A DNA stretch of 14,220 bases, taken from Candidatus Altiarchaeales archaeon WOR_SM1_SCG (GTDB lineage: Archaea; Altiarchaeota; Altiarchaeia; IMC4; WOR-SM1-SCG). Where the stretch lies: NCBI GenBank assembly GCA_001723845.1, contig MCBE01000255.1:1-14220 (forward strand), written 5' to 3'. Positions 1 to 14,220 of the stretch are shown in pieces. A program made the translations under genes and the position numbers. The notes beneath the pieces are model-generated. The model ran no database searches. It was not told the DNA's origin and saw only the letters and a program-made list of their open reading frames with translations. Positions within the stretch are counted from its first letter, which is position 1. Every line of letters begins with the position of its first letter.

Positions 1-2
1 TA

Positions 3-347
3 TTTACGCCCCTATCTACTTTAGCCGTTGTGCGATATGGTGCAATCGGCAAATTTACCTCTGCGTTTGAAATCACTGCAATCTGGCACAATTTCAGAGC
101 GGGCTTGAAAAATTATATTATCGGATTTATTATAATTCTCGCGGTTGCATTTTTTGTTGAACTCATCGCGCGCATAATTGCAGTTATTGTTATACTTCCG
201 GGTATCTACGCACCCATGCTCTTAATTGTGTTAGCACCACTTGCAGCGTATATCTGGATGGGCATAGCAACATTTTACCAGATGATGATTGGAATTCGTA
301 TGTTTGCAAATATTTACAATGAGGTTGAGGATAAGAAGGAAAAATAA
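3..347 (+). CDS. C-terminal portion of a polytopic membrane protein (5-prime partial; the reading frame is open to the window edge, and the internal GTG at 30 is only a possible start)
   Basis: There is no in-frame stop between position 3 and the GTG at 30, so the ORF very likely continues upstream of the window. The product is strongly hydrophobic with 3 predicted TM segments. The stretch WHNFRAGLKNYIIGFIIIL followed by hydrophobic helices resembles the C-terminal third of the 306-aa membrane protein at 3990..4910 (GFRFFMKNKLNVFLMWLIIL...). Paralogy is judged by eye only. Confidence 0.5.
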   Translation, partial: FTPLSTLAVVRYGAIGKFTSAFEITAIWHNFRAGLKNYIIGFIIILAVAFFVELIARIIAVIVILPGIYAPMLLIVLAPLAAYIWMGIATFYQMMIGIRMFANIYNEVEDKKEK

Positions 348-368
348 AATTTCAATTTAATTTAAATC

Positions 369-377
369 TTTATAAAT
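369..377 (+). promoter_or_regulatory. TATA-box-like element (TTTATAAAT) upstream of the rpl13-rps9 pair
   Basis: The motif is archaeal TATA-like and lies about 45 to 55 nt upstream of the rpl13 start candidates in an AT-rich intergenic region. It was found by sequence inspection only. Confidence 0.25.
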
Positions 378-424
378 TTATTGATTCAAATTTAATGTTT
401 AAAATACCATAATTGAATTTAAAA

Positions 425-862
425 ATGATAATTAACGCAGAAGGACACATACTTGGAAAATTGTCGGCATTCGCGGCAAAACAGGCACTGCTTGGCGAGG
501 AAGTGATCGTTGTAAATGTAGAAAAAGCAGTAGTTTCTGGAAATCGCGACATGGTGTTTAAAAGCTACATGGACAGGTTAAAGTGGAAAAATAAAATGAA
601 TTACAGGAAAGGTCCGTTTCACCAGAAGCGCCCCGATAAGTTCGTAAGAAAAACAATCAGGGGAATGCTTCCGTTCAAGAAGACGCGGGGCAGGGAGGCA
701 TATAAAAGGATCATGACTTATATCGGGATACCGGAAGATGAAATCAAAAGGGCGCATAATCTTGATATAAAAAATCATGAAATTGAAAATTTGGATAATA
801 TTAGAAAAGAAATTAGAGGTGTTACCGTGGATGAAATTTGTAAATTTATCGGAGGCAAATAG
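425..862 (+). CDS. rpl13: 50S ribosomal protein L13 (uL13)
   Basis: The translation MIINAEGHILGKLSAFAAKQALLGEEVIVVNVEKAVVSGNRD...KGPFHQKRPDKFVRKTIRGMLP is a clear match to archaeal uL13. The ORF track starts at 413 (MNLKM...), but archaeal L13 proteins begin at the MxIDAEG motif, so the ATG at 425 is preferred. The stop is TAG at 860-862. Confidence 0.9.
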   Translation: MIINAEGHILGKLSAFAAKQALLGEEVIVVNVEKAVVSGNRDMVFKSYMDRLKWKNKMNYRKGPFHQKRPDKFVRKTIRGMLPFKKTRGREAYKRIMTYIGIPEDEIKRAHNLDIKNHEIENLDNIRKEIRGVTVDEICKFIGGK

Positions 863-868
863 TAATGA

Positions 869-1285
869 ATGATGAATAAACTCGTACATAAACCCGGAAA
901 AAGAAAGACTGCGGTTGCACGCACAACGATAAGAGAAGGCAGGGGAAATGTTAAAATAAATTCCGTACCGGTTGGTACTTACGGACCGGAAATCGCCAGG
1001 CTTAAAATTATGGAGCCGGTTGTTTTAGCAAGAGAAAACGGTGTTAATTTAGATTCAATAGACATACTTGTAAATGTTTCCGGCGGCGGGGTCATGGGAC
1101 AGGCGGCAGCGGCATCAACATCAATTGCAAGAGCACTTGTGGAATTTGCAGGAGAAGACCTGCTCAGGGCGTATGTAGATTACAACAGGATAATTATTGC
1201 AGGCGACCACAGGCAGACAGAACCCCACAAACCCTCGCAGAGCAGCAAAGGTCCGAGACACAGGAGACAGAAATCATACAGGTAA
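869..1285 (+). CDS. rps9: 30S ribosomal protein S9 (uS9)
   Basis: The N-terminus HKPGKRKTAVARTTIREGRGNVKINSVPV, the internal GGGVMGQAAAASTSIARAL and the canonical C-terminal ...RHRRQKSYR are diagnostic of uS9. The gene follows rpl13 by 6 nt, which is the conserved archaeal L13-S9 order. Confidence 0.92.
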   Translation: MMNKLVHKPGKRKTAVARTTIREGRGNVKINSVPVGTYGPEIARLKIMEPVVLARENGVNLDSIDILVNVSGGGVMGQAAAASTSIARALVEFAGEDLLRAYVDYNRIIIAGDHRQTEPHKPSQSSKGPRHRRQKSYR

Positions 1286-1288
1286 ATC

Positions 1289-1325
1289 GGGGGTTAGGGA
1301 TTGGGGATTAGGGGTTAGGGATTAG
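1289..1325. repeat. G-tract repeat with five G3-5 runs separated by TTA/ATT (GGGGGTTAGGGATTGGGGATTAGGGGTTAGGGATTAG); telomere-like (TTAGGG) and able to form a G-quadruplex
   Basis: This is read directly from the sequence. The 13-mer GGGGTTAGGGATT occurs twice, and the G runs sit in an otherwise roughly 35 percent GC genome, immediately 3-prime of the rps9 stop. Confidence 0.6.
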
Positions 1326-1383
1326 TCCGATACACTGACCACCAAAAAACTAACCACTAAAAATAATAATTTAATTAATAAAA

Positions 1384-1959
1384 ATGAAATTCCAAAAATT
1401 TAAGCACGATTCAAAAATTTTGATTTTATTTGTTTTTGTTTCAGTAGTTCTATTTTCAGGATGCACCGAGGTTAATGAACGGGCAGTAGGAAACTCTTCA
1501 GATGAAACACCGGGGCAAATTGAAGTTAAATGCGGAATTGTTAATGAATTGTGCTGTGAAAATAATACCTGTAATTCTAATCTGTCTTGTGTTGAAAATA
1601 GATGTATGAATTTTAAAGTAGCAAACATAAGCACGGAAAACCCAAAGTATGCCGCAAACCAGCAAATTAAAATTTCAGTAAATATTAATTCAACAAGTGA
1701 TGTAAATAATGTCTCGCTTCGTGTTTACGGGATAACATCAAGGCAAAAAAAGCATTTGATGGATAAAACGATAAATTTGAATTTAACTCAAGGTATAAAC
1801 ATCCGGAATTTTACAGTGAACGCCCCTGCTTGCACTCACGGGTGCGGCGCTAAATATTATCCCGGAGATTACCCCCTGTATGCCGAAATCTTATATAAGG
1901 ACGAAATAAATAATATTTCAATTTCAGATGGAAACCAGATTATGGTGAACCTGTACTGA
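1384..1959 (+). CDS. Secreted Cys-rich glycoprotein or lipoprotein candidate (hypothetical)
   Basis: An N-terminal signal peptide (KILILFVFVSVVLFSG-C) ends in a lipobox-like SGC. It is followed by a 6-Cys knot, CGIVNELCCENNTCNSNLSCVENRC. There are at least seven N-x-S/T sequons (NIS, NST, NVS, NLT, NFT, NIS). No recognisable enzyme motif is present. Confidence 0.6.
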   Translation: MKFQKFKHDSKILILFVFVSVVLFSGCTEVNERAVGNSSDETPGQIEVKCGIVNELCCENNTCNSNLSCVENRCMNFKVANISTENPKYAANQQIKISVNINSTSDVNNVSLRVYGITSRQKKHLMDKTINLNLTQGINIRNFTVNAPACTHGCGAKYYPGDYPLYAEILYKDEINNISISDGNQIMVNLY

Positions 1960-2034
1960 AACTAATAATTTTAAATAAATTATGGGCAGGGCATAAATGC
2001 TGTTCCGTACGATTCATGCCGGATGCCGTTTGAC

Positions 2035-2070
2035 GGAATTTATGAAAAATTCCGGGGGGAACTTTTTTTT
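2035..2070 (+). terminator. Hairpin (GGAATTT-ATGAA-AAATTCC), then a G6 run, then a T8 tract; an archaeal oligo-T terminator candidate
   Basis: A perfect 7-bp inverted repeat at 2035-2053 is followed by GGGGGGAAC and TTTTTTTT at 2063-2070. A second perfect hairpin, GCGACA-GGAAAT-TGTCGC, lies at 2077-2094. Archaeal termination relies on oligo-T tracts. The site is about 100 nt downstream of the 1384..1959 CDS. Confidence 0.35.
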
Positions 2071-2175
2071 GTGCTTGCGACAGGAAATTGTCGCTTAAAA
2101 GAGTTTCCGGTATTACATCTATTTAAAGAATTAAACAATAAATAATTAATAGACAATTTATTTATATTTTATACC

Positions 2176-3804
2176 ATGCCTGAAAAAATGAAAATTAATA
2201 CAATAAATGAGCCGCTCTGCCAGGGAGATATAATCTACTTTGTTTTAACGGACAGATTTCGCGACGGGCTCAAAGGAAATAATAACGGCGGGAATTTTAA
2301 TGCCGCACCTTCGGAACCAGAAAACCCGGGAAAATATCACGGCGGGGATTTAAAGGGAATTATTGATTCCATACCTTATCTTTCAAAATTAGGTATTACT
2401 GCCCTGTGGATTACGCCCGTGTATTTGAACATAGGCGAATGCGGGGATGGGGACAGTTATCACGGTTACTGGGCGCTTGATTTTGATAAAATTGACCCGC
2501 ATCTTCTCCCCAAAGGTTCCGATCTCGGTAAAAAGAACCTGCGCGAGTTAAGTGATACACTCCACAAACACGGGATAAAATTAATCCTTGACATGGTCGT
2601 TAACCATACGGGGTATCATACCGGTAATTACAAAGATTACCATAAAAAAGGCGATTTTAAACCGGGTTCCGAATGGTTTGGAAAAAATCCCGGATTAAGC
2701 ACCGGGGGACTTCCAGATATTGATTTCGGTCCTGATGGAAAAGAAGAGAAACCGACCCAGGTGCACTCGGATGTAAGAGATTTCTTTGTCAACAATATAA
2801 TTGACTGGATTGAGGACTCAGGGATAGACGCCATAAGAATGGATACCATAAGATATGTTGAAGATGCTTTCTGGTATTATTTTAAAAGTTATGTTCGCGG
2901 GAAATACAGAAATGTTGCATTGATAGGCGAGGACCTTGGAGGGGATATTGATGAAGTTGCAAAATACCAGAAACAAATGGACATAGATTGCATGTTTGAT
3001 TTTGAATTAACATACAATATACTTGATGTGATGATGTGCGATCATGATAGGTTTAATGACAAAAAAGAACTAAACTTTGGAATGATGTGCCTTGCAAGCC
3101 CGAGGATTCATGAATGGGAAGAACATAAGGGAATACTGGATGTTGACACCAAAAAGTACACGAATGCAAATCGTCTTGTTACGGTGCTTGACAACCACGA
3201 CCTTGAGAAAAGAATTATGAGCTGGGGTTTAACGAAATCCTGCGGCAACAAGGAGTGGGCAGCACGGCTCGTTAGATATGTTTTAGCATTCCAGTTTACA
3301 ACCAGGGGAATTCCATGTATATACTACGGGACGGAACTATGTCTTGAAGGTTCAAGGGAATCCGGGGGCGATGCTGATCTGCGAAAGGATTTCCCGTGGG
3401 AACTGATAGATAAATCAACCCGTGAACCTGGAAAGTATATAGACCGGATTAAATGTGATATGTATTACTTTGTGAAACAGCTGATACAATTAAGAAAAAC
3501 ACACGATTCATTAAAATACGGGATACTTTTCACATTATATGTTGATAGGGATTTCTATGCATACATGAGAGAATGGCGAGGTGAGGTGGTAATAACGGTC
3601 CTGAATAATAAATGCACGGATGATAAAAGCACCGTAGAAATAGATATCAAAAGCAACATAAATATTCCGTCCAGGATAAAGAATATTCTCAATGATAGAG
3701 TCCTGAGGGATGCAATTGAAAAAAGATATAAAACAAAATGTTCAAACGGTAAACTGTCAGTTTCTCTTAAAGGGAAAACTGCCCGCATCCTTACGCTGTT
3801 TTGA
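2176..3804 (+). CDS. GH13-family alpha-amylase, cyclomaltodextrinase or neopullulanase-like glycoside hydrolase (cytoplasmic, no signal peptide)
   Basis: The GH13 conserved regions are present: DRFRDG; GGDLKGIIDSIPYLSKLGITALWITPVY; region II GIKLILDMVVNHTG; region III DAIRMDTIRYV (nucleophile Asp); GEDLGG (acid/base Glu); region IV VLDNHDL. An alternative start is the ATG at 2188 (MKINTINE), with TATA-like TTTATATTTTATA at about 2160-2172. Confidence 0.88.
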   Translation: MPEKMKINTINEPLCQGDIIYFVLTDRFRDGLKGNNNGGNFNAAPSEPENPGKYHGGDLKGIIDSIPYLSKLGITALWITPVYLNIGECGDGDSYHGYWALDFDKIDPHLLPKGSDLGKKNLRELSDTLHKHGIKLILDMVVNHTGYHTGNYKDYHKKGDFKPGSEWFGKNPGLSTGGLPDIDFGPDGKEEKPTQVHSDVRDFFVNNIIDWIEDSGIDAIRMDTIRYVEDAFWYYFKSYVRGKYRNVALIGEDLGGDIDEVAKYQKQMDIDCMFDFELTYNILDVMMCDHDRFNDKKELNFGMMCLASPRIHEWEEHKGILDVDTKKYTNANRLVTVLDNHDLEKRIMSWGLTKSCGNKEWAARLVRYVLAFQFTTRGIPCIYYGTELCLEGSRESGGDADLRKDFPWELIDKSTREPGKYIDRIKCDMYYFVKQLIQLRKTHDSLKYGILFTLYVDRDFYAYMREWRGEVVITVLNNKCTDDKSTVEIDIKSNINIPSRIKNILNDRVLRDAIEKRYKTKCSNGKLSVSLKGKTARILTLF

Positions 3805-3989
3805 ATTAGAACAGAGTAATTTTAATTTGCTTAAACTTTGCTTCCTGTAATCGGTAACGGAAGAGGCACTGGAATATACTGAAAACCGGCTTCGCGCGGG
3901 TATGTGCCTGCGCTAAATAAAGCAAATAAAATTTTAAATAGATTAATTTAAATTAAAGATTAATTAATTATTATTGCCGAGGTATTGAA

Positions 3990-4910
3990 ATGACTGAAAA
4001 TTTAACCGATATTTTAAAGGAAGGATTTGAATTATGGAAAAATAATCCGGTACTTGGAATCCCGCCGCTTTTGGGCTGGATAATACAGTACGGCTTGTGG
4101 TTTATAGCAGGTATTATTATAATGTTTGCGGTACTGGGAGTCGGTCTTGGTGCAGTATCGCTTTCGGAAAATATTGAAAACATTAACGCTTTAATCCAGT
4201 CGCTGGGTGCTGCTGCCGTATTTATATTCCTGGTTGTTGCGTTTTTAATTGTTATAACTCTTTTAATTGACGCATTCTTTAAAGCAGGGCTTATCGGAAT
4301 GTCAAAAGAAGCGATTGAAACAGGAAAAACGGAAATTTCAACTATGGTTGAGTGCGGCAAAAGAAAATTTATACCTGTATTTTTTGCAAATTTAATAATT
4401 TTGATATTATCCCTGCTTCCGTTAATAATTGCGGGAATAATATTTTTAATATTAATTGCTTCGGGCGCGGCATCAATTGAGAGTTTCGGGGATGCGGAAA
4501 TCGTAAAATATACATTTTTATTTCTGCTGCTGCTTGTGATATTTCTGCTCTGGATTTTATACGCGATCGTAATAGATATAATATTTTCAGTCGCTATTTA
4601 TGCCGTGGTCATATCAGACACGGGAGCGGTTGAAGGTTTAAGGTTGGGCTTTAGATTTTTCATGAAAAACAAACTTAATGTCTTTTTGATGTGGCTTATA
4701 ATTTTATGTATATCTTTTGTTTTCGGAAGCATCTATTACATGATACAGGTGTTTCTCAGTTTCATACCTATTATCGGTGCAATTGTCGGTTTTGTCCTCT
4801 GGGTTGTCTTTTATGTTTTCATGGCAGCAGTATTCACCCCTATTACTGCCCTCTGGTGGAGCAGGATTTACATGGACGGGGGGGAAATTAACAAAAAATT
4901 AACAATTTAA
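3990..4910 (+). CDS. Polytopic integral membrane protein of unknown function (roughly 6-7 TM; resembles GP-PDE-membrane/DUF-type archaeal membrane proteins)
   Basis: The 306-aa ORF is very hydrophobic, with repeated 20-25-aa helices and short charged loops. Its C-terminal region is similar to the partial ORF at the window start. It has no catalytic motifs. Confidence 0.6.
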   Translation: MTENLTDILKEGFELWKNNPVLGIPPLLGWIIQYGLWFIAGIIIMFAVLGVGLGAVSLSENIENINALIQSLGAAAVFIFLVVAFLIVITLLIDAFFKAGLIGMSKEAIETGKTEISTMVECGKRKFIPVFFANLIILILSLLPLIIAGIIFLILIASGAASIESFGDAEIVKYTFLFLLLLVIFLLWILYAIVIDIIFSVAIYAVVISDTGAVEGLRLGFRFFMKNKLNVFLMWLIILCISFVFGSIYYMIQVFLSFIPIIGAIVGFVLWVVFYVFMAAVFTPITALWWSRIYMDGGEINKKLTI

Positions 4911-5002
4911 ATGTTAATCTTAATTTTAATTTAAATTCATAAAAATTTTAATTCATAAATAAAAATAACCAATAATAATCAATAATAACCACTAAAATCA
5001 AA

Positions 5003-5779
5003 ATGTTTGCAGAATTATTAACCCTTGTAATTTTTGGAATTTTCTTTTTATTTTTCGCACTGCCCATAATTACTTTAATTGTAACGAGATTTGTAAAAAT
5101 AATTGTTCAATACGAGCGAGGCATGTTGTTTGCAGTGGGCAAATTCGCAAGTATTCTTGAGCCGGGCGTAAATTTTGTAATCCCTTTCTATCACCGGCTT
5201 GAAAAAATTGATATGAGAGTCACGACGATTGATGTGCCTAAACAGGAAGTTATGAGTAAAGACAATGTTCCGGTAAACATTAATGCAGTGCTGTACTTCA
5301 GGGTGTTTGACCCGGAAAAGGCAATACTTAATGTTGAGGACTACACTTATGCGATTTCAAAGTACGCGCAGACATCGCTTAGAAATGTTACGGGGGAGGC
5401 GACGCTTGATGAAATGCTCTCGGAGCGGCAGCAGATTGCAGAGAAATTAAGAAAGATTGTTGACGAGGCAACAGACCAGTGGGGTATAAAGGTTATTGCA
5501 CTTGAACTCCAGGACATTGAACTGCCTGAAGGGATGAAAAGAACAATGGCAAAACAGGCGGAAGCAGAAAGGGAAAAAAGAGCGGCAATAATTAAAGCGG
5601 AAGGGGAAGTCGCCGCATCAAAAAATCTTTCGGATGCGGCAACGATTCTAAGAGGCGTTAAAGGCGCACTGCACCTGCGAACACTGCATTCATTAAATGA
5701 CATGTCATCAGACCAGAGCAATACAATTGTATTTACAGTGCCGCTTGAAGTTTTGCGTGCTCTTGAGGATGTTGATTAA
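5003..5779 (+). CDS. SPFH/Band-7 (stomatin/prohibitin-like) protein with an N-terminal TM anchor
   Basis: An N-terminal hydrophobic helix (LLTLVIFGIFFLFFALPIITLIV) is followed by an SPFH core (QYERGMLFAVGKF...VPKQEVMSKDNVPVNINAVLYFRV...LRNVTGEATLDEMLSERQQIAEKL...) and a coiled-coil AKQAEAEREKRAAIIKAEGE segment, which is typical of stomatin-like proteins. Confidence 0.9.
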   Translation: MFAELLTLVIFGIFFLFFALPIITLIVTRFVKIIVQYERGMLFAVGKFASILEPGVNFVIPFYHRLEKIDMRVTTIDVPKQEVMSKDNVPVNINAVLYFRVFDPEKAILNVEDYTYAISKYAQTSLRNVTGEATLDEMLSERQQIAEKLRKIVDEATDQWGIKVIALELQDIELPEGMKRTMAKQAEAEREKRAAIIKAEGEVAASKNLSDAATILRGVKGALHLRTLHSLNDMSSDQSNTIVFTVPLEVLRALEDVD

Positions 5780-5834
5780 AAATAATATAAAAATTTAAAA
5801 TTAAATTCGATATTTAAAAAATATAAAATTTAAA

Positions 5835-6263
5835 ATGCAGGGCAATATAACGGGATTCAACTTGGAAGATTCGGAGCAGGCAAAAAAAGGAGCGATATTT
5901 TTTGCAGTGGGAATCGTATTCCTCGTTATTGCAGGCACATTCGGGTTTTCAAACCCAACCCTCGCTATTGTTTTAGCAATTTTATGTGCAATTTCTTTAA
6001 CAATCGGTATGTATTTACTAAGCCCGGACAATAAAGACAGTAAAAATAATAAAATGGAATCCGCTGGCTTTGAACAGGATGTACTTTTAAAACCCTCCTG
6101 TAAAAGTACCAAAGACAGGCACACGGGAGGAATTATATTTGCATTCGGGATATTTATATTATTATCCTCGCCGTTATGGGCGCAATTCACGGAAATGCTG
6201 ATTATTACACTTGTAACCGGGGGAGTGATTATGGCTTATGGTCTTTACAGGATTGTCAATTAA
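5835..6263 (+). CDS. Small 4-TM membrane protein with an internal 2-TM duplication, encoded between the two SPFH paralogs
   Basis: The first half (GAIFFAVGIVFLVIAGTFG...LAIVLAILCAISLTIGMYLL) mirrors the second half (GGIIFAFGIFILLSSPLWA...LIITLVTGGVIMAYGLYRI). It is not NfeD-like: there is no OB-fold or ClpP-like domain. The gene sits in the same orientation, 55 nt after the first SPFH gene and 44 nt before the second. Confidence 0.55.
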   Translation: MQGNITGFNLEDSEQAKKGAIFFAVGIVFLVIAGTFGFSNPTLAIVLAILCAISLTIGMYLLSPDNKDSKNNKMESAGFEQDVLLKPSCKSTKDRHTGGIIFAFGIFILLSSPLWAQFTEMLIITLVTGGVIMAYGLYRIVN

Positions 6264-6307
6264 AATCACAAAATTAAAATTTCAATTAAATTAAAATAAA
6301 ATTCAAA

Positions 6308-7039
6308 ATGCCGTTAAAAATAATAAACCAGTACGAAAAAGGGGTTTTGTTTTCCCTTGGTAAATTCAAGGGTCTGCGGGACCCGGGATTGAATACCTAT
6401 GTCCCGATCCTGCAGAAAATTGTGAAAATAGACATAAGAGTAAAGACCGTGGACATCCCGAAACAGGAGGTTATGACAAGGGATAATGTGCCTGTAAAAA
6501 TAAACGCCGTGATTTACTTTAAAATAATTGATCCTGAAAAGGCGGTACTTAATGTCAGGGATGTCATTTATGCAACATCAAAATACGGGCAGCTTGCACT
6601 CCGCAATGTTGTCGGGCAGACAACGCTTGATGAATTGCTTTCCGAAAGACAGCAGATTGCAGACCAGTTGAGAAACATCGTTGACGAAGCAACCGACCCG
6701 TGGGGTGTTGATGTGACAATGATTGAATTACAGGATATTGAACTCCCTGAAACCATGAAAAGAACCATGGCAAAACAGGCGGAAGCGGAAAGGGAAAGAA
6801 GGGCGGTTATAATAAACTCCGAGGGCGAGGTAATTGCCGCAGAAAATATTGCACAGGCAGCCAAAACACTTTACGCAACGCCGGGCGCACTGCACCTGAG
6901 AACACTGCACTCGGTAAATGACCTTTCATCAGATAGATCGCAGACAATCGTGTATGCAATACCTATAGAAATCCTGCGGGTACTTGAGCGGCTCGGTGAT
7001 ATGCTTGAAAAGGAAAACAAAAGAAGAAAAGTGAAATAA
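6308..7039 (+). CDS. SPFH/Band-7 (stomatin-like) paralog that lacks the N-terminal TM anchor
   Basis: It is about 60 percent identical by eye to the 5003..5779 product across the SPFH core (VPKQEVMTRDNVPVKINAVIYFKI...LRNVVGQTTLDELLSERQQIADQL...MKRTMAKQAEAERERRAVIINSEGE). It begins directly at the YEKGVLF motif. The upstream sequence is full of stops, so there is no hidden TM exon. Confidence 0.88.
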   Translation: MPLKIINQYEKGVLFSLGKFKGLRDPGLNTYVPILQKIVKIDIRVKTVDIPKQEVMTRDNVPVKINAVIYFKIIDPEKAVLNVRDVIYATSKYGQLALRNVVGQTTLDELLSERQQIADQLRNIVDEATDPWGVDVTMIELQDIELPETMKRTMAKQAEAERERRAVIINSEGEVIAAENIAQAAKTLYATPGALHLRTLHSVNDLSSDRSQTIVYAIPIEILRVLERLGDMLEKENKRRKVK

Positions 7040-7101
7040 ATAAGTGAATTTAAATTTAAATTTAATTCTTAATTCTAATTTATAAAATCAAAAACAGATT
7101 A

Positions 7102-7146
7102 ATTACATTAAATAAAATTACATTAAATAAAAATATATTAAATAAA
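7102..7146. repeat. Three tandem 15-bp direct repeats (ATTACATTAAATAAA x2, then a degenerate AATATATTAAATAAA copy) abutting the start codon of the aminotransferase gene
   Basis: Read directly from the sequence. The array ends 2 nt before the ATG at 7149. It may be a promoter or operator element, or simply AT-rich slippage. Confidence 0.45.
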
Positions 7147-7148
7147 AA

Positions 7149-8222
7149 ATGGATAAACCGAAATTATTTACCGTCGGACCGACTTATGTAAACGAAGATG
7201 TGAGAGAGGAAATGAAGCGTCAAATGTTTTCCCACAGGAGTTCTGATTATGTGAAACTTCACAGTGAATTAATTGAAAAATTAAGGGAATTTTTAAACAC
7301 TGAAAATGAAATTTTTATTTACACATCATCATCAACAGGATGTATGGAGTCCGGTGTAAGGAATATGATATCAGATAGCGGAACAGGGCTTAGTACAATC
7401 TGCGGTGCTTTTGGTAAAAGATTCGGTGAAATTATTGAGCAAAACGGGAGAAAACTCGTTGAAAGTGAAGTTGAATGGGGCGAGGCAAACAGGGGCGAGC
7501 AGCTTGATGAAGTGCTTTCTAAAAATCCGGGTGTTGAAGTTGTGACAATCACGCACTGCGAGACATCAACCGGTCTTTTAAATCCTCTTGATGAGTTATG
7601 CAAGGTTGCAAAAGAGCATGATGTTTTAACAATGGTTGATACGGTAAGTTCAATGTCCGGGACAAGGATTGAAATAGACAAGCTTGGTATTGACTTCTGT
7701 TTTTTCGGCGTCCAGAAATGCTTTTCGGTGCCGCCGGGACTTGCAATTGCAGTGGTAAGTAAAAAAGCAATGGAAAAGGCAGAAACCGTAAAGAACAGGG
7801 GGCATTATTTTGATTTTTTGAATTTGAAAAAATACAACGACAAAAACATGATTCCATACACGCCGCCGATTCCCCAGATGTTTGGTCTTTCAAAGCAGCT
7901 GGATATGATTATTGATGAAGGCGCAGGAAATAGATTTTACAGGCACAGCAAGATTTCCGCAAGAGTGAGAAACGGCTGCAAGGATTTAGGATTCGGCGTT
8001 TTTCCCGATGAGAAATACGCGGCTCCGACACTCAGCTGCATTTCAAACCCCCTGGAAGTTGACCTTGCCGAAATGAATTCTAAAATGAAAGAGCGAGGGT
8101 TTATTCTTGCTTCAGGTTACGGTAAAATCAAGGATACGACATTCCGTATCGGGAACATGGGTAATGTTACACTTGATGATGTTAACGAGATGCTTGAGAA
8201 TCTGGAAGAGGTTGTCGGGTAA
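7149..8222 (+). CDS. Class V pyridoxal-phosphate-dependent aminotransferase (AGXT/SgaA family; archaeal phosphoserine or serine-glyoxylate aminotransferase-like)
   Basis: The N-terminus LFTVGPTYVNEDVREEM and the PLP-lysine context FFGVQKCFSVPPG (the GSQK...PPG signature of class V aminotransferases) are present. The length is 357 aa. The closing motif is TFRIGNMGNV. Confidence 0.85.
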   Translation: MDKPKLFTVGPTYVNEDVREEMKRQMFSHRSSDYVKLHSELIEKLREFLNTENEIFIYTSSSTGCMESGVRNMISDSGTGLSTICGAFGKRFGEIIEQNGRKLVESEVEWGEANRGEQLDEVLSKNPGVEVVTITHCETSTGLLNPLDELCKVAKEHDVLTMVDTVSSMSGTRIEIDKLGIDFCFFGVQKCFSVPPGLAIAVVSKKAMEKAETVKNRGHYFDFLNLKKYNDKNMIPYTPPIPQMFGLSKQLDMIIDEGAGNRFYRHSKISARVRNGCKDLGFGVFPDEKYAAPTLSCISNPLEVDLAEMNSKMKERGFILASGYGKIKDTTFRIGNMGNVTLDDVNEMLENLEEVVG

Positions 8223-8229
8223 AAATTAA

Positions 8230-8400
8230 TGGGACCGCCGAGATTTGAACTCGGGTTACCAGCTTTTCGTTTCACAGTCAGGCAGTTTAAGCCATCTCAA
8301 CAAAATGGGCTACGCTTTGCTCCGCGACATTTCCGCGTATAACTTGGAAATGAGGAGAATCCCCGAGCTGGAAGGATGAACCAAGCTACCCTACGGTCCC
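8230..8400 (-). tRNA. tRNA gene interrupted by a roughly 97-nt intron. Isotype is unresolved; the weak best guess is anticodon CGG (Pro) if the loop is CUCGGG just before the intron
   Basis: On the minus strand the 5-prime acceptor GGGACCG at 8400-8394 pairs perfectly with the 3-prime CGGTCCC. The D arm is GGGT/AGCTTGGTTC/ATCC. The T arm is CCGAG-TTCAAAT-CTCGG, followed by discriminator A. The intervening roughly 100 nt separate CCAGCT from AGCTGG, which are exact reverse complements and form an anticodon-stem-like helix. CCA is not encoded. Confidence 0.75.
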
Positions 8401-8445
8401 GTAATTATTGATTAGAATTGAAGTTTAATATCAATTTTATTATTT

Positions 8446-11400
8446 TCATTTTATCGCTTCTTCAACACTTAAACTTTTAAAGCCCTTGCTGTTTGCTAAA
8501 TTTCTTTTATTTGAATCTTCTGCAAGAACCACCTTTGCACCCACCTGCATTGCCAGTGCAACAGTTTCATCGCCGACTTCTTCTAAATATTTCCGTCCTT
8601 TTGCATTTAACTCTACCTCCTTTATCCTGCCGTCTTTTTTTATCTCCCCCATAATCGCTTTATAGGTTGCAGGCGTCACATAAATTTTATTGAATTTACC
8701 AATTGCCCTGCCTAATTTACCTTCATTTTTTGCCTTTTCTAAAAATACCATATCTGCGACCGCCTTTTTCTTTCCAAGCAGCAATAATAATAAAATTAAA
8801 ATTATGATTAAAACCGGAACCCAGTACCACCAGGACATGCCCTTTACGGAAATTTCTGCCTTTTCACTTTCAATATAACCTTTTTTACTTGCCGAAGCGT
8901 CAATTTTCCCTGCTTGATTTTCAATAAATTGAATATTACCCTTATCATCTGTTGTAAATGTTCGCCCGTCAGAAGTGATAACCGATGCGCCTGAAACAGT
9001 ATTGCCTTTCTCGTCAGTAACATTGCAGGTTATTATTTCACCGGTTTCAACATTTTCAGGGCAATTAATTATTAATTTTTGTGCCGGGCAGGTACCGCAA
9101 TCTTCACTACAGGTCTCGCAGGTTTCATCGCCCTCGCATTTTCCGTCACCGCAGACAATTTTCGGTGGACATGTACCGCAATCAATTTCACAATTTCCAC
9201 AGGTATCATCACCTTCACACTTCCCGTCGCCGCAAACCGCAGGACATGCACCGCAATCAATTTCGCAATTTGAGCAGTTTTCATCACCCTCACATATTCC
9301 GTCACCGCATACTGCAGGACATGCACCGCAATCAATTTCGCAGTTTGAGCAGTTTTCATCACCTTCACATATTCCGTCACCGCAAACCGCAGGACATGCA
9401 CCGCAATCCGATTCGCAATTTTCGCAGATCTCGTTGCCTTCACATACGCCGTTGCCGCATACCTCGGTCGGGATTGATGGTTTTGGTTTACCATTGGATT
9501 TTCCTGGTTTTTTGCATGCTTTAATCTCTCCGTCACAATCTTCGTCTATATTATTTCCACAGATTTCAGTTGAATTTGGATTAACACCCGGGTTTGTGTC
9601 GTTGCAATCAACCGGGGTATCACAAAGTGTAAAGTTATCGGAATCGGAATCAATTGGTGCATTCACACACGCATCTGAATTTTCATCACATGAATCGTTT
9701 GTGCACGAAATATTATCATCACAGGTTGGCGGTGTTCCCGCCCGGCAGCCGGTAAGGTTGCATACTTCTGCGCCATTGCACCATAAACCGTCATCGCAGG
9801 CAGAATCATCCGGTGTGTAAACGCAGCTTCCGCCGCTGCAGGTATCACCGGTGCATGCCACCTCATCATCACAGGCATTACATCCGGATTTTACTGTCTG
9901 TGTACCTGTTACCGAATAAGTGCAGGAGGTTTCCGAGCAATAATAATTTCTGTACTCCTGCTCCTGGCAGGTGCATACCTGGTTTTCGTCACAGCAATCG
10001 TAGAGTGCGCTGACATTATACCAGCCGTCTTGACTATTGCAGTTTGTACAAGAAGTGCATCCGCAGTCGGTATCCGAACCCGAGCAATACGGAGTATAGA
10101 TGCAATTTCCGCCGCTGCAGGTATCGGATGTGCATGAATTTCCATCATCACACGCATTGCAGCCGGATTTTACTGTCTGTGTACCGGTCACCGAATAAGT
10201 GCAGGAGTTTCCGGAGCAATAATAATCCCTGTGCTCCTGCTCCTGGCAGGTGCATTTCTGGCTTCCGTTGCAACAATCGTAGGGCGCGCTGATATTATAC
10301 CAGCCGTCCTGGCTGTTGCAGTTTGTACAGGAAGTGCATCCGCAGTCGGTATCCGAACCCGAGCAATACGGAGTATAGATGCAATTTCCGCCGCTGCAGG
10401 TATCGGATGTGCATGAATTTCCATCATCACACGCATTGCAATTATATTTCATTACCCGTGTATCGTTTTCCGTATAATTACATGAAAATTCAGAGCATTG
10501 CGTTCCGGAGCAGTAATAATCCCTGTATGTTTGATTCCGGCATGTGCAGTTCTGGTTTGCGTCACAGCAAGCGTAAGGATCGCTGCTGTTATACCACCCG
10601 TCGGAATTGTTGCAGTCATCACAGTTTGTGCAAGGATGAGTACAGGGATTCCCGTCAGGCGTATCATTCCATACGGTTGCACTATTACATGTGTTGTTAT
10701 CCCCAAAACTTGAGCAGCCGCACTCACTATCATCACAATTTATATCGTCAACGGTATTTGAACAGAATATATTGTAATTTACCTGATTATTGCCTGAACA
10801 CATATCTATATTCAAGCCGTATTCGTTATATCTTGCGATATTATTGATTATGTTGTTGTTGTCCGAATTATATAAGTAAATTCCGGAATAATTATTTAAA
10901 TTTACACAATTATTTATGATGCCGTTATTCCATGAATAGTATAAACAAATTCCCTCGTAATTTTCATTGACCGTGTTGTTGATTATGTTTGAATTATCTT
11001 CATTATCAAATACAATTCCGCATCTATCGCACTCACCACCCACCAGGCCGTTATAAAACACCCTGTTGTTCGTGATATTGTTATAACTCTCATAAATCCC
11101 ATTATCATAAATCTCATTTCCACCATAGATTACTATCCCGCTGCAAAAATTAGAACTTACATTGTTATTATCAATCGTGTTGTAACTTGAACTATCTAAA
11201 TAAATTCCGGTACTAAAATTATAAATATTAAAATTATTTATGATAATATTATTTTTTCCATAAGCATATATCCCGTTTCCGGTGGTGTCTCCGGTTATAC
11301 TAAATCCATTGCCGTCAATTGTGATATTATCCGCTCCAACCGTAAAGCATGTGCCGTTTGAATTTAAATTACAATTCAGTGTGCAGGATTCCATTATTGT

Positions 11401-13308
11401 TTCCCCGCAGGTGTAATTATAGGTTCCGTTGTCGCAGCCGCAATGTGCTGGCGTGCAGGAATAACTGCATCCTGCTGTTCCGGCGTCATTCCAGCCATAA
11501 GTTGTGTCGCAGGTATTATCGTCACCGGCATTATTATTTCCTTCGTTGTGAATATCGGTATTTATGATACCGTTAAAGCAAGCAGTGTTTTCATTAAGCG
11601 TATTATCGTCGGATGAATACAAACCAATGCCTTGAAGGTGGTTATACATGGCAGTGTTATTGGTTATATTATTGCGGTGCGATTCGTGCAATCTGATACC
11701 GTGACAATCTCCGGCAACATCATTTAAATTTGCAGTGTTGCCATAAATCAAATTATCATCCGAGTAGAGAAGATCAATACCTACGCCTTCCGGTGCGGAT
11801 GGTCCGTGATTCTCATTCGCGATGTTTTTTACAATTGTATTATTATTTGCATAATATAAATAAATACCTTTCCTATCGTTTGAACTTGCATTATTTCCGG
11901 TAACATTGTTGTAATATGATTGATTTAGGCAGATGCCGTAATAATTGTACAATGCTGTGTTGTTGATTATATTGTTGTATTGTTCACCGAATTTCAGGTA
12001 GACCCCGTATAACTGATTTAAATTTACCGTGTTATTGATTATGTCATTGTAATTATTCCCTGTAACTGATCCCAGATGTATTCCTATGTTGTTTTCTAAA
12101 ACATCGTTGCCGATTATTCGGTTATACCCACTATACTGTGTCAGATAAATACCGTTATTGGTGTTATTATAGATTTTGTTATCAATTAGAGTGTTATTGT
12201 TTGAGCCAGATAATTCAATCCCATTATCTGAGTTGTTATTTACTGTGTTGTCATCTAATGTGTTGCTTAAGGAATAATATAAATAAATCCCATGATTAGT
12301 GTTGTTATTCGCTGTGTTGGATACCAGAGTGTTGTTGTTTGAGGATGACTCTACCCTAATTCCGTTAAAATTATTTGAGCTTGCAGTGTTGTTGATTACT
12401 TTATTGTTTGAGGAATCAAGTATGCGAATTCCGTCATAATTATTTGAATCCGCCGTGTTGTTTGAAACAGTGTTATTTAAGGAAGAATATAAATAAATAC
12501 CGTACCCGTTGGAACTTGCCGTGTTGTCTGTAACAGTGTTATTTTTTGAAATATACATATAAATTCCTGTCTGTTCACTGCCGTTTATTGTATTATTATT
12601 TATTTTACTATTATTCACCGCATTTAAAGAAATTCCATAAGAGAAATTATAAATATTAAAATTTTTTATTGTTACATTATTTCTTCCGTCTGCATAAATC
12701 CCGTCTCCGGTGGCATCCCCGGTTATATTGAATCCCGCACCATCAATTGTGATATCATCCGCTCCAAGGGTAAAGCAATCGCCGGTTGAATTTAAATTAC
12801 AATTCATTACGCAGGATTCCATCACCATTTCCCCGCAGGTGTAATTACGGGTTCCGGTGTCGCAGCCGCACAGTGCAGGTACACAGGAATAACTGCACCC
12901 TCTTGCTCCGGTATCGTTCCAGCCAAATACCGTGTCACAAGTATTATTGTCGCCGGCATTATCGTCAGAATCATTAATATCCCAACCATTACCGCAGATT
13001 AAATTTGAACTTAAATTATTATTATTTGAATTTGAAGCAAAGTAAACGCCGTAGTCAGTATTGTTTACCAGGGTATTATTTGTTAAATTATTAGATCCCG
13101 AATTATACAGGAAAATTCCATAAGCTGCACCATTGTCCCTGTCGCAGTAATTATCATTTGCCGTGTTATTAACCAGAGCATTGTTTGAGGAAGAATATAG
13201 GCGAATTCCATAAGAATTGCTGGATGTGCCGCAGTAATTATCATTTGCTGTGTTTCTGGTCAGGTCATTGTAGTGTGAATCATATAAATAAATCACGTAT
13301 CCTCTCAA
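8446..13308 (-). CDS. Giant (1620 aa) N- and C-rich cell-surface protein that appears 5-prime truncated. It contains parallel beta-helix (PbH1/NosD-like) repeats, Cys-rich tandem modules and an Ig-like domain, then a single C-terminal TM helix and a 109-aa cytoplasmic tail
   Basis: A continuous 4.86-kb ORF spans the locus. Dozens of roughly 22-aa NNTxxxNxxxGIxLyxSxNNxI repeats make up the beta-helix part. Two copies of a CSYSC..CGCD..TCGE...ITIDG.GF.ITGD module are present, then 3 x 93-aa CSGGNCIYTPYCSGSDTDCGCTSC... repeats and 5 x 25-aa CPAVCGDGICEGDENCSNCEIDCGA repeats. The TM helix is MSWWYWVPVLIIILILLLLLL, followed by GKKK. N-x-S/T sequons are very frequent, consistent with archaeal N-glycosylation. 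There is no signal peptide. The ORF begins on a TTG inside a repeat unit, with an in-frame stop 13 codons upstream and no ATG. Confidence 0.85.
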   Translation of the reverse strand: MRGYVIYLYDSHYNDLTRNTANDNYCGTSSNSYGIRLYSSSNNALVNNTANDNYCDRDNGAAYGIFLYNSGSNNLTNNTLVNNTDYGVYFASNSNNNNLSSNLICGNGWDINDSDDNAGDNNTCDTVFGWNDTGARGCSYSCVPALCGCDTGTRNYTCGEMVMESCVMNCNLNSTGDCFTLGADDITIDGAGFNITGDATGDGIYADGRNNVTIKNFNIYNFSYGISLNAVNNSKINNNTINGSEQTGIYMYISKNNTVTDNTASSNGYGIYLYSSLNNTVSNNTADSNNYDGIRILDSSNNKVINNTASSNNFNGIRVESSSNNNTLVSNTANNNTNHGIYLYYSLSNTLDDNTVNNNSDNGIELSGSNNNTLIDNKIYNNTNNGIYLTQYSGYNRIIGNDVLENNIGIHLGSVTGNNYNDIINNTVNLNQLYGVYLKFGEQYNNIINNTALYNYYGICLNQSYYNNVTGNNASSNDRKGIYLYYANNNTIVKNIANENHGPSAPEGVGIDLLYSDDNLIYGNTANLNDVAGDCHGIRLHESHRNNITNNTAMYNHLQGIGLYSSDDNTLNENTACFNGIINTDIHNEGNNNAGDDNTCDTTYGWNDAGTAGCSYSCTPAHCGCDNGTYNYTCGETIMESCTLNCNLNSNGTCFTVGADNITIDGNGFSITGDTTGNGIYAYGKNNIIINNFNIYNFSTGIYLDSSSYNTIDNNNVSSNFCSGIVIYGGNEIYDNGIYESYNNITNNRVFYNGLVGGECDRCGIVFDNEDNSNIINNTVNENYEGICLYYSWNNGIINNCVNLNNYSGIYLYNSDNNNIINNIARYNEYGLNIDMCSGNNQVNYNIFCSNTVDDINCDDSECGCSSFGDNNTCNSATVWNDTPDGNPCTHPCTNCDDCNNSDGWYNSSDPYACCDANQNCTCRNQTYRDYYCSGTQCSEFSCNYTENDTRVMKYNCNACDDGNSCTSDTCSGGNCIYTPYCSGSDTDCGCTSCTNCNSQDGWYNISAPYDCCNGSQKCTCQEQEHRDYYCSGNSCTYSVTGTQTVKSGCNACDDGNSCTSDTCSGGNCIYTPYCSGSDTDCGCTSCTNCNSQDGWYNVSALYDCCDENQVCTCQEQEYRNYYCSETSCTYSVTGTQTVKSGCNACDDEVACTGDTCSGGSCVYTPDDSACDDGLWCNGAEVCNLTGCRAGTPPTCDDNISCTNDSCDENSDACVNAPIDSDSDNFTLCDTPVDCNDTNPGVNPNSTEICGNNIDEDCDGEIKACKKPGKSNGKPKPSIPTEVCGNGVCEGNEICENCESDCGACPAVCGDGICEGDENCSNCEIDCGACPAVCGDGICEGDENCSNCEIDCGACPAVCGDGKCEGDDTCGNCEIDCGTCPPKIVCGDGKCEGDETCETCSEDCGTCPAQKLIINCPENVETGEIITCNVTDEKGNTVSGASVITSDGRTFTTDDKGNIQFIENQAGKIDASASKKGYIESEKAEISVKGMSWWYWVPVLIIILILLLLLLGKKKAVADMVFLEKAKNEGKLGRAIGKFNKIYVTPATYKAIMGEIKKDGRIKEVELNAKGRKYLEEVGDETVALAMQVGAKVVLAEDSNKRNLANSKGFKSLSVEEAIK
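9089..9463. repeat. Five tandem 75-bp repeats (coding 25-aa CxxCGDGxCEGDExCxNCExDCGxCP modules) inside the giant gene
   Basis: The units at 9164-9238, 9239-9313, 9314-9388 and 9389-9463 are near-identical and share the core GCAGGACATGCACCGCAATCAATTTCGCA...; an outer copy at about 9089-9163 is more diverged. Confidence 0.85.
9810..10690. repeat. Three tandem 279-bp repeats (93-aa Cys-rich modules) inside the giant gene
   Basis: CCGGATTTTACTGTCTGTGTACC recurs at 9884 and 10163. A 60-bp block is identical at 10101-10160 and 10380-10439. The third copy, from about 10440, is more diverged. Confidence 0.8.
11185..11529. repeat. Internal duplicated module, copy 2 (roughly 345 bp; the Cys-knot plus first beta-helix turns), homologous to 12613..12957
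   Basis: The protein segments NAGDDNTCDTTYGWNDAGTAGCSYSCTPAHCGCDNGTYNYTCGETIMESCTLNCNLNSNGTCFTVGADNITIDGNGFSITGD and NAGDNNTCDTVFGWNDTGARGCSYSCVPALCGCDTGTRNYTCGEMVMESCVMNCNLNSTGDCFTLGADDITIDGAGFNITGD match. The DNA offset is 1428 bp, with about 80 percent nucleotide identity by eye. Confidence 0.75.
12613..12957. repeat. Internal duplicated module, copy 1, homologous to 11185..11529
   Basis: The evidence is the same as for copy 2. The spurious plus-strand ORFs 12786..12977 and 11349..11567 in the six-frame track encode near-identical peptides, which confirms duplication at the DNA level. Confidence 0.75.
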
Positions 13309-13416
13309 AAAATAGAGTGTCTCTAATCTGCCACATATCTCTCCTCAATTAATTAAAAACACACCTAATTATCCACATTGCTAAAAATCTATTATATCCA
13401 ATGAGACACGAGATAC

Positions 13417-13560
13417 TCAATCCTTAAGTATAATAAGATAAACTCTCTTGCCCATATACTCTTTTGGACAAATCACTTTTGCTCCGCTTCCGAATGGGGT
13501 GACCTTTCTCTCGATAAAACCGAGAACCCCACTAACTTTTATTTCTGTTTGTTCTTTCAT
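13417..13560 (-). CDS. Small 47-aa protein with a swapped-hairpin (AbrB/SpoVT-like) signature that resembles the archaeal putative transposon-encoded protein family. It is absent from the ORF track because it is under 60 aa
   Basis: Translating the minus strand by hand from ATG (13560-13558) to TGA (13419-13417) gives MKEQTEIKVSGVLGFIERKVTPFGSGAKVICPKEYMGKRVYLIILKD. The pattern V-x-P-F-G-x-G-A-x-V-x-x-P-K-E-x-x-G-K-x-V, followed by a hydrophobic strand, is typical of small DNA-binding beta-barrel proteins found next to archaeal transposase genes. Confidence 0.5.
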   Translation of the reverse strand: MKEQTEIKVSGVLGFIERKVTPFGSGAKVICPKEYMGKRVYLIILKD

Positions 13561-13658
13561 AAGTATTTTTTTCATTGTATTTATTTGGGCCATATATTTT
13601 CAGTGGTTTATAGTATATATTAAATATATACTTAAATAAGTAATTCTAATATTATAAT

Positions 13659-14220
13659 ATGAAACAAAAAGATCTGTTGGAAAATTTGGATATTGATCTC
13701 AAGTGCATCGCAGACAAGAAAATAAAGGCGACAATATTGCTCCTTTTCAGTAGGGTAGAGGATTTATCTTCAACTGTTCACAAGCAGCAACAAGAAATTC
13801 AGCGGTTGCGGGACGAGAATAATAGATTAAAAGGCGAACAAGGAAAACCAAACATCAAACCAAATAAAAAGAAGTTGTCTATAGATTTCTCCTCTGAAAA
13901 AGAACGCAAAAAAGCAGACAACCTCCCAAAACGAAAAAGAGATACAAAAAAGGACAAAATTAAAATAGACCGAAAAGAAAAATGCAAGATAAATAGAACT
14001 ATGCTGCCTCCTGATGCCATATTTAGCAGGTATGCAACCGTAGTTGTTCAAGATTTAAAAATAGTAACGGATAACATTGAATTTCAAAAAGAGGTGTGGT
14101 ATTCACCATCGCAAAACAGGACTTACATGGCGGATCTCCCACCGGGTTATAAAAAAGAATATGGTCCCGGAGTCAAAACAATAGCAATTAATATGAAAAA
14201 TGCCTGCAATATGTCCGAGC
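13659..14220 (+). CDS. Transposase, 3-prime partial (runs off the window); IS66-like features
   Basis: The reading frame is open from the ATG at 13659 to the window end (187 codons, verified by hand with no stops). An N-terminal leucine-zipper-like coiled coil (EIQRLRDENNRLKGEQ) is followed by a Lys/Arg-rich linker (KPNIKPNKKKLS...KRKRDTKKDKIK) and then a ...ADLPPGYKKEYGPGVKTIAI segment that resembles the conserved GPGL region of IS66-family TnpC. No CxxC zinc finger is seen, so the family assignment is tentative. Confidence 0.45.
   Translation, partial: MKQKDLLENLDIDLKCIADKKIKATILLLFSRVEDLSSTVHKQQQEIQRLRDENNRLKGEQGKPNIKPNKKKLSIDFSSEKERKKADNLPKRKRDTKKDKIKIDRKEKCKINRTMLPPDAIFSRYATVVVQDLKIVTDNIEFQKEVWYSPSQNRTYMADLPPGYKKEYGPGVKTIAINMKNACNMSE

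Follow-up and report, generated by a model that had tools for sequence, protein, structure and literature searches.

Probable disruption of a giant beta-helix surface-protein gene by an IS66-family insertion sequence in a Candidatus Altiarchaeales archaeon

The window analysed here is an entire contig (14,220 bp) from the single-cell genome of Candidatus Altiarchaeales archaeon WOR_SM1_SCG, and in it an insertion sequence (IS) of the IS66 family, 2135 bp long, has very probably inserted within the coding sequence of a giant modular beta-helix cell-surface gene. The terminus of the IS was found inside a reading frame that runs continuously in an IS-free allele, L038. A first-pass annotation, made from the letters of the window, had proposed that an IS cut off the 5' end of this gene and left a remnant or pseudogene, and both the position of the boundary, between codons 4 and 5 of the ORF as listed, and the L038 frame bear this out. 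An orthologue starting at the same position, which that annotation had named as the contrary outcome, was not what we found, as the L038 orthologue continues upstream instead. This is an ordinary IS disruption and its biology is unsurprising; among the archaeal phyla compared in an earlier study, median IS content was highest in Altiarchaeota (PMC13343696).

The giant reading frame and its truncated N-terminus

The features of the gene and of its junction with the IS were as follows.

8446..13308, minus strand: giant ORF, 1620 aa as listed
8446..13296, minus strand: native 3' portion of the giant beta-helix surface-protein gene (NosD/PbH1-type, right-handed parallel), 1616 codons plus stop
8761..8832, minus strand: single predicted transmembrane (TM) segment (WWYWVPVLIIILILLLLLLG), residues 1493-1516 by hydrophobicity scan, followed by KKK and a tail of about 100 aa
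13280..13348, minus strand: short outward ORF across the IS end, +1 out of frame with the giant ORF, stopping 17 nt into the flank
13289..13296, plus strand: predicted copy of the 8-bp target site (TAAATCAC); the IS-free allele reads GAAATTCC, with 3/8 positions different
13297..13308, minus strand: apparently spurious start TTG AGA GGA TAC (M-R-G-Y), within the IS terminal inverted repeat
13345..13347, minus strand: in-frame TGA closing the frame upstream, in IS sequence

Against Pfam, the giant ORF matched NosD (231.6 bits) and Beta_helix (192.6 bits), and TIGR03804 recognised multiple parallel beta-helix repeats in 12 stretches (276 bits). Assignment to NosD proper was rejected, as the TIGR04247 score (115 bits) lay below the family cut-off of 300, and profile matches across the window placed no nos genes near the ORF. 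Read from its 5' side, the native portion opens with the tail of a beta-helix module. A Cys-rich linker leads on to two more modules, which have their start motifs at residues 147 and 623, and these are succeeded by Cys-rich repeats, a CarboxypepD_reg-like domain, the TM segment and the C-terminal tail. Residues 6-214 align to residues 482-690 with 54% identity (E 3e-73), and the ORF therefore starts deep within a module. The earlier observation that its first residues are themselves a beta-helix repeat holds in so far as residues 2-25 resemble the next turns, but the "RGY" of that unit is IS sequence; the native residues run from V5 (VIYLYDSHYNDL...).

The C-terminal TM segment that had been described earlier was recovered as the sole hydrophobic segment of the ORF, and the N-terminus was, as also described, devoid of a signal peptide in the form in which the ORF stands in the window (Kyte-Doolittle maximum 0.03 over 15 aa up to residue 70). 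A hydrophobic stretch of at least 1.8 was present within the first 60 residues in 96 of the 113 homologues that begin with methionine. P0004 and P0005 are examples of homologues in which the signal peptide leads directly into the module-start motif. The listed TTG (13308-13306) had been taken for the only start, but a GTG at codon 5 (13296-13294) was overlooked and is an additional formal candidate; the earliest in-frame ATG is codon 161.

The insertion sequence and its junction with the gene

The part of the element that lies in the window was resolved into four features, with the copy in locus L002 as reference.

13297..14220, plus strand: IS66-family IS, first 924 bp of 2135 bp, 99.8% identical to IS positions 1-924 of L002 754-2888
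13297..13313, plus strand: IS terminal inverted repeat (GTATCCTCTCAAAAAAT); L002 arms 754-770 and 2872-2888, 16/17 complementary
13417..13593, minus strand: DUF2080 family transposase-associated protein, IS accessory gene, 58 aa (Pfam PF09853, 63.2 bits)
13659..14220, plus strand: IS66-family DDE transposase, first 187 of 548 codons, running off the contig end and identical to residues 1-187 of the L002 transposase

The ends of the IS were fixed by at least 11 other copies in at least 8 left-flank contexts, whose right flanks were of at least 6 kinds. Across L001, L002 and L028-L039, the full or near-full copies were 99.0-100% identical over 2135 bp, every full copy starting GTATCCTCTCAA and ending TTGAGAGGATAC. 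Inverted repeats with 17-nt arms, GTATCCTCTCAAAA(A/T)AT, were present at both ends, and the termini were alike in all copies. The window copy has only two mismatches to L002, at 13328 and 13589; the right end of the contig falls 924 bp into the element, which if complete would extend to about 15431.

The full transposase scored 34.9 bits against PF03050 (DDE_Tnp_IS66; gathering score 23.1), with only profile positions 129-283 of 284 matched, and 87.6 bits against NCBIfam NF033517, for which the equivalog cut-off is 180; judged from these matches, it is probably a divergent member of the IS66 family. The DUF2080 gene is transcribed divergently from the transposase gene, and its product in L002 (NCBIfam NF033496, 48.4 bits) is one residue apart from that of the window (A2V). 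The accessory genes tnpA and tnpB are absent from the 2135-bp element, which holds only the 548-aa transposase and the 58-aa DUF2080 genes and thus resembles the single-ORF ISBst12 group and not the canonical three-ORF IS66. An exact 37-mer from the transposase start had no match among the genome contigs, and an exact look-up of the partial transposase of this single-cell genome (ODS38405.1, 392 aa) found it not on record.

A target duplication of 8 bp was deduced from two independent flank pairs, each rebuilt from different contigs and neither of them belonging to the window copy: TTTCTATA (left flank L030; right flank L031/L034) and CAAAAAAC (left flank L029/L001; right flank L039). Metagenome contigs spanning the IS were demonstrably chimeric, and often so; L029 and L033, for example, have a right flank in common while their left flanks differ.

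At the gene, identity to the other IS copies stops at 13297, which is 12 nt inside the listed ORF, so that the insertion point lies between 13296 and 13297, in the second-known module of the gene and midway through one of its beta-helix turns, where the flank GTGATTTA abuts the IS beginning GTATCC. Because the terminus lies at 13297, the TTG, the MRGY codons and the upstream TGA are all IS sequence. The earlier statement that an in-frame TGA (13347-13345) precedes the TTG by 13 codons, with no in-frame ATG between them, was correct, and it is the presence of these two codons in the IS end that leads ORF finders to give a 1620-codon TTG "gene"; we infer that the TTG start is an artefact. A transposase-bearing element upstream had also been reported, and it is there, but it does not begin about 110 bp away: what lies at that distance is only the stop codon of the DUF2080 gene (13417), and the IS itself abuts and overlaps the ORF. 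These 108 bp to the DUF2080 gene do look intergenic, and the TTG is listed by the ORF finder, as would be expected if the natural start of the gene were at 13308 or close to it, with the IS confined to the intergenic region upstream. With the TTG inside the IS, and with an IS-free allele in which the ORF does not begin there, we accord that explanation practically no probability, and L038 refutes it.

The IS-free allele and the fate of the remnant

L038 comes from another sample (3300028897) and represents a different strain of a closely related population, 1.8% divergent. Its positions 523-13844 align with window positions 1-13300 at 98.2% nucleotide identity, without an IS at the insertion point. 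The frame is open through the junction (...GNTAKYNKYGISLYDSHYNDLTRNTANDNY...) and for at least 187 more codons upstream, in which the interrupted beta-helix module continues to its beginning and a further Cys-rich linker is encoded. The 1616 native residues of the window are colinear with L038 residues 188-1803 (98.8% amino acid identity, no gaps), and the remnant has no internal stops or gaps, with a dN/dS of 0.15 against L038. The intact gene exceeds 1800 codons and, by analogy with its homologues, would carry a signal peptide; L038 itself ends short of the true N-terminus. By analogy with module 2 about 330 aa would have been lost from the cut module, but this figure was discarded, as the module in L038 is shorter and the loss amounts to about 159 aa, together with one or more linkers or modules that lie upstream of it.

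Could the junction have been made in the laboratory? The assembly derives from an MDA-amplified single cell (single-cell amplified genome; PMC4975002), the contig ends inside the IS, the metagenome contigs that cross the IS join unrelated flanks, and three mismatches are clustered in the 8 nt beside the junction, all of which would be compatible with an MDA chimera or an assembler join and with a gene that is intact in the real genome. The break, however, coincides precisely with the terminal base of the IS inverted repeat, as expected of a real insertion and not of a random chimera, and mis-joins induced by repeats arise inside the repeat, without creating a new junction between flank and terminus. 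We therefore regard such an artefact as very unlikely.

The mismatch cluster is in itself a curiosity, TAAATCAC differing from L038 at three positions within the 8 nt that adjoin the IS. As decisive evidence against a real insertion it was set aside, since four other such clusters occur within the gene.

We favour a real insertion, which would split the gene and leave its 5' part beyond the IS, although an IS-adjacent deletion of the 5' side may have occurred. Neither the 5' fragment nor the second target copy was found beyond the IS, because the contig ends inside it. The upstream 200 aa of L038, used as a query for the 5' fragment or the true N-terminus, retrieved nothing near-identical, P0159 and P0160 being rejected as paralogue-like fragments, and when its upstream 570 nt were compared by BLAST with every locus retrieved, the only matches were internal and paralogous. 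The IS end together with the predicted duplication had no match in the viral contigs searched. Exact-protein look-ups of the giant ORF, the DUF2080 protein of the window and the aminotransferase found none of them on record, and the full-length homologue search with the giant ORF gave no close orthologue, the best matches being partial alignments of 30-47% identity. A search for synteny through the aminotransferase in GTDB genomes yielded archaeal relatives of only 44-50% identity (Hadesarchaea, Bathyarchaeia), and in none of these was a homologue of the giant gene nearby.

What remains in the window is best read as a split gene or a pseudogene that appears to have lost its promoter, its ribosome-binding context, its signal peptide and the 187 or more codons seen in L038. 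The insertion is probably recent, because the remnant has acquired no other disabling mutation and the IS still shares 99.8% identity with other copies. The same lack of decay might be taken to mean that the remnant still functions, with DUF2080 read-through or an outward-facing promoter in the IS driving its transcription, and with translation, starting at either the TTG at 13308 or the GTG at 13296, yielding an N-terminally shortened protein with a C-terminal TM anchor. No stop closes the frame that leads from the IS to the gene, no disabling mutation occurs over the 1616 codons, the DUF2080 gene is oriented as the remnant is, and the IS end contains an AT-rich, TATA-like stretch and a GAGGAG. 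This GAGGAG, however, stands before an ATG (13336-13334) that opens the short outward ORF, out of frame with the giant ORF and ending 17 nt into the flank, and no Shine-Dalgarno-like motif was present directly before the TTG; the product would lack a signal peptide and start in the middle of a beta-helix turn, and recent insertion explains the absence of decay equally well. A functioning remnant is thus left with a very slim chance. A read-through product from the IS, if made, would have no export signal, and its Cys-rich beta-helix ectodomain would be expected to stay in the cytoplasm and be non-functional.

Comparison with known systems

IS elements inactivate surface-structure genes or cause their phase variation in bacteria, as with IS256 in the staphylococcal ica locus and IS1301 in Neisseria siaA. 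Our case resembles these in having an IS within a surface-protein gene in one cell and an IS-free allele in related populations, but it differs in that there is no sign of reversibility, precise excision or switching within a population, and the IS-free allele is 1.8% divergent. We give a small probability to the idea that an adhesin-like giant surface protein of sediment Altiarchaeales is switched on and off by the IS, the cells of a population differing in a manner akin to phase variation and the insertion being one of the two states, or that the IS end, with its frame open into the flank, drives an N-terminally truncated protein. If the on/off reading were true, the cluster of 3/8 mismatches would record error-prone repair of the gap at IS66-type insertion sites.

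With the giant NosD/PbH1 surface proteins of archaea the gene shares its NosD and Beta_helix repeats. Homologues of this kind are 1000-2800 aa long, occur in Methanosarcinales, Asgard archaea, Thermoplasmatota and Altiarchaeales, and mostly have an N-terminal signal or TM segment; the present gene differs from them in its multi-modular build, with repeated Cys-rich linkers, a C-terminal TM segment and a cytoplasmic tail. For annotation, the 1620-aa "protein" becomes the 3' part of an IS-interrupted gene, with its first four residues encoded by the IS.

The comparison also defines a complete and evidently active IS66-family element of sediment Altiarchaeales, with its length of 2135 bp, its ends, inverted repeats, 8-bp duplication and DUF2080 gene. 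Like the members of the single-ORF ISBst12 group (ISBst12, ISDge4), it encodes a DDE transposase with a DDE_Tnp_IS66 domain and no TnpA or TnpB, and it has terminal inverted repeats starting GT(A) and an 8-bp target duplication; for a coiled-coil N-terminal region the likeness consists of sub-threshold Pfam matches only (SlyX, Med9). ISDge4 has the inverted repeats GTGAC/GTAAC and the direct repeat CCTCGATG (PMC12898284), and ISBst12, as recounted in the same source, came to light when an S-layer gene, which encodes a surface structure, ceased to be expressed (Egelseer 2000, cited in PMC12898284). The present element departs from the group in its divergent 58-aa DUF2080 accessory gene, in a transposase whose 87.6 bits fall short of the 180 required by the NCBIfam IS66 equivalog and which matches only the C-terminal half of the Pfam model, and in having an Altiarchaeales archaeon as host. 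At 2135 bp it is also longer than typical ISBst12-group members.

The giant gene and its junction with the insertion sequence

The largest open reading frame (ORF) in the window encodes a right-handed parallel β-helix repeat protein (Pfam NosD 231.6 bits, Beta_helix 192.6 bits; TIGR03804 in 12 stretches) and has two insertion sequence (IS) genes upstream:

8446..13308, minus strand: giant ORF, 1620 aa, listed start TTG
13417-13593, minus strand: DUF2080 gene, 58 aa
13659 to window end, plus strand: transposase, first 187 codons

On the minus strand, an in-frame TGA (13347-13345) is followed by 12 sense codons and then by the TTG (13308-13306), and reading from this TGA there is no in-frame ATG before codon 161 of the giant ORF. 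The sole hydrophobic segment of the product spans residues 1493-1516, and a hydrophobicity scan found no signal-peptide-like sequence at the N-terminus. The ORF map and hydrophobicity thus agree with the first-pass annotation, which had described a TTG start, an upstream in-frame TGA, a missing signal peptide and an upstream transposase element. Its boundary for that element was wrong: identity to the IS runs from 14220 down to 13297, inside the listed ORF, and ends there, so that the TTG, the codons AGA GGA TAC and the upstream TGA all lie in the IS terminal region. Native giant-gene sequence starts at 13296 with GTG ATT TAT TTA TAT GAT... (VIYLYDS...), and the 108 bp between the giant ORF and the DUF2080 gene are non-coding IS end, not intergenic host DNA.

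The uninterrupted allele and the intact protein

The same locus was retrieved from related populations by look-ups of neighbouring proteins. One such contig, L038 (JGI 3300028897, 14,402 bp), aligns to window positions 1-13300 with 98.2% identity and runs on for 558 nt past the aligned region with no IS. Its giant ORF is uninterrupted through the insertion point (...LGIYLYHSDNNEIYGNTAKYNKYGISLYDSHYNDLTRNTANDNYCGTSS...) and extends 187 codons beyond the junction in the upstream direction, where the contig ends with the frame open. With the boundary corrected, this read-through supports the earlier proposal that an IS truncated the gene; the case is an ordinary one of a gene disrupted by insertion of an IS66-family, ISBst12-like element.

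The 187 extra codons include the start of the module cut by the IS (CGCDTGTRNYTCGD...NCDLNSNGTCFTIGANDIAIDGNGYSITH), preceded by a Cys-rich linker (GDNNTCNTVQNWNDGGEVTGCTYSC). In the window, every such linker comes after a β-helix module (motifs at residues 119, 595 and 869), and the intact gene probably contains at least one more module further upstream, which would make the intact protein longer than 1803 aa. Independently, the internal homology of residues 6-214 to residues 482-690 (54% identity, E 3e-73) shows that the window ORF starts deep in a module. L038 ends short of the true N-terminus; a hydrophobic N-terminal segment is present in 96 of 113 homologues, and in two homologous proteins, P0004 and P0005, the common module-start motif follows it immediately. 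By analogy with these homologues, we infer that the intact protein has a signal peptide.

At the other end of the protein, the single transmembrane segment and a KKK stop-transfer are followed by a tail of about 100 aa (residues 1517-1620; window 8446-8760, minus strand; AVADMVFLEKAKNEGKLGRAIGKFNKIYVTPATYKAIMGEIKKDGRIKEVELNAKGRKYLEEVG…). The tail is predicted to be cytoplasmic, is unusual among surface proteins of this kind and gave no Pfam hit up to E 0.01. Tandem internal repeats (window 9086-9463 and 9808-10616, minus-strand gene) comprise five short units of about 25 aa (VCGDGxCEGD.NC.NCE.DCG.CP, starts at residues 1283-1385) and long, Cys-rich units of about 93 aa with mutual nucleotide identity of about 81%. 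Overlapping BLAST segments suggest that the L019 allele has about one long unit fewer than the window and L038, and several related contigs terminate within these repeats.

Copies, ends and family of the insertion sequence

Two metagenome contigs with IS copies were retrieved using an exact 37-mer from the transposase start, further copies in 10 places by look-up of the 548-aa transposase, and one more through a transposase variant. A 2135-bp unit was present in all of them (99.0-100% identity), always starting with GTATCCTCTCAA and ending with TTGAGAGGATAC; the adjoining DNA varied, with at least eight left flanks (window counted) and at least six right flanks. The ends carry inverted repeats of 17 nt, complementary at 16/17 positions. 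The 8 nt adjoining the IS were identical in two flank pairs, TTTCTATA (L030 left, L031/L034 right) and CAAAAAAC (L029/L001 left, L039 right), these matching duplications being seen across contigs only. The transposase scored above the gathering score of Pfam DDE_Tnp_IS66, and its match to NCBIfam IS66 fell short of the equivalog cut-off; the small gene encodes a 'DUF2080 family transposase-associated protein', and tnpA and tnpB are absent from the 2135-bp IS. The 8-bp duplication, GT-initial inverted repeats and single transposase ORF resemble the ISBst12 group of the IS66 family, of which ISDge4 is an example (PMC12898284). Both the IS, including its accessory DUF2080 gene, and the giant β-helix protein belong to known families and are themselves uncharacterised. 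Altiarchaeota are reported to have the highest median IS load among archaea (PMC13343696).

Among the variants, the copy at L028 4859-7008 (JGI 3300028823) contains 15 bp inserted compared with the reference, together with a DUF2080 variant of 63 aa versus 58 aa, and the L039 copy has a 533-aa transposase. An IS630-like element (DDE_3 and HTH_32/33 ORFs; L001 2139-3271, L029 921-1900) directly adjoins one IS copy, indicating that this population has clustered or nested mobile elements. The DUF2080 gene and the transposase are divergently transcribed and only 65 bp apart. By eye, the DUF2080 protein (…VTPFGSGAKVICPKEYMGKRVYLIILKD) presumably resembles an AbrB/SpoVT-type swapped-hairpin DNA-binding domain, and papers on toxin-antitoxin networks mention DUF2080.

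Several metagenome contigs crossing the IS paired flanks from different loci; L029 and L033, for example, have a common right flank and different left flanks. Short-read assembly of a 2-kb repeat is expected to produce such mismatches, and short-read contigs spanning the IS should not be relied on for synteny.

The remnant and the insertion site

The 1616 native codons align colinearly to L038 without gaps or stops (98.8% amino acid identity; 57 of 4851 nt differ; dN/dS 0.15), and the IS copy in the window has 2 mismatches to the reference over 924 nt. The intact remnant and near-identical IS copy are consistent with a recent insertion into a gene formerly under purifying selection. No Shine-Dalgarno-like motif was found before the TTG at 13308; the GAGGAG within the IS end belongs instead to an ATG in another frame (13336). 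That ATG opens a short outward ORF (13280-13348, minus strand) which crosses the IS terminus out of frame with the giant gene and stops 17 nt into the flank, after four flank codons; at insertions in another phase, this start could yield fusion proteins. The remnant might conceivably be expressed by read-through from the DUF2080 gene, which has the same orientation, and the Cys-rich ectodomain of the remnant, having no export signal, presumably could not reach the surface.

The WOR_SM1_SCG genome was amplified from a single cell of White Oak River estuary sediment (reads SRR3575064; Bird et al. 2016, PMC4975002). The gene-IS junction is unlikely to be a chimera of multiple displacement amplification (MDA) or assembly, since the break lies precisely at the IS terminus. 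Exact-sequence matches of neighbouring proteins identify the window as a whole WOR_SM1_SCG contig of 14,220 bp; it ends inside the IS, so extension past the IS is impossible from this assembly. An amino acid search with the L038 upstream sequence, a nucleotide search with it against the retrieved loci, and a search of viral contigs with the IS end plus predicted duplication found neither the 5' fragment nor a second TAAATCAC copy, and a clean split is therefore indistinguishable from insertion with adjacent deletion.

At the predicted target-site duplication, the 8 nt adjoining the IS (window 13289-13296, L038 13833-13840) hold three of the 57 differences (TAAATCAC versus GAAATTCC), changing GGA ATT TCT (G-I-S) in L038 to GTG ATT TAT (V-I-Y) in the window and the consensus Gly of an 'xGIxL' turn to Val. 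Under a uniform rate this clustering has P of about 9e-5, yet four similar clusters occur elsewhere in the giant gene. Polymorphism, gene conversion between repeats, a (gap-)repair error at the duplication or an assembly error at the repeat boundary are possible sources.

Elsewhere in the window, two SPFH/Band-7 paralogues (5003-5779 and 6308-7039, plus strand) with a 142-aa ORF between them share about 72% nucleotide identity over about 510 nt (BLAST self-hits).
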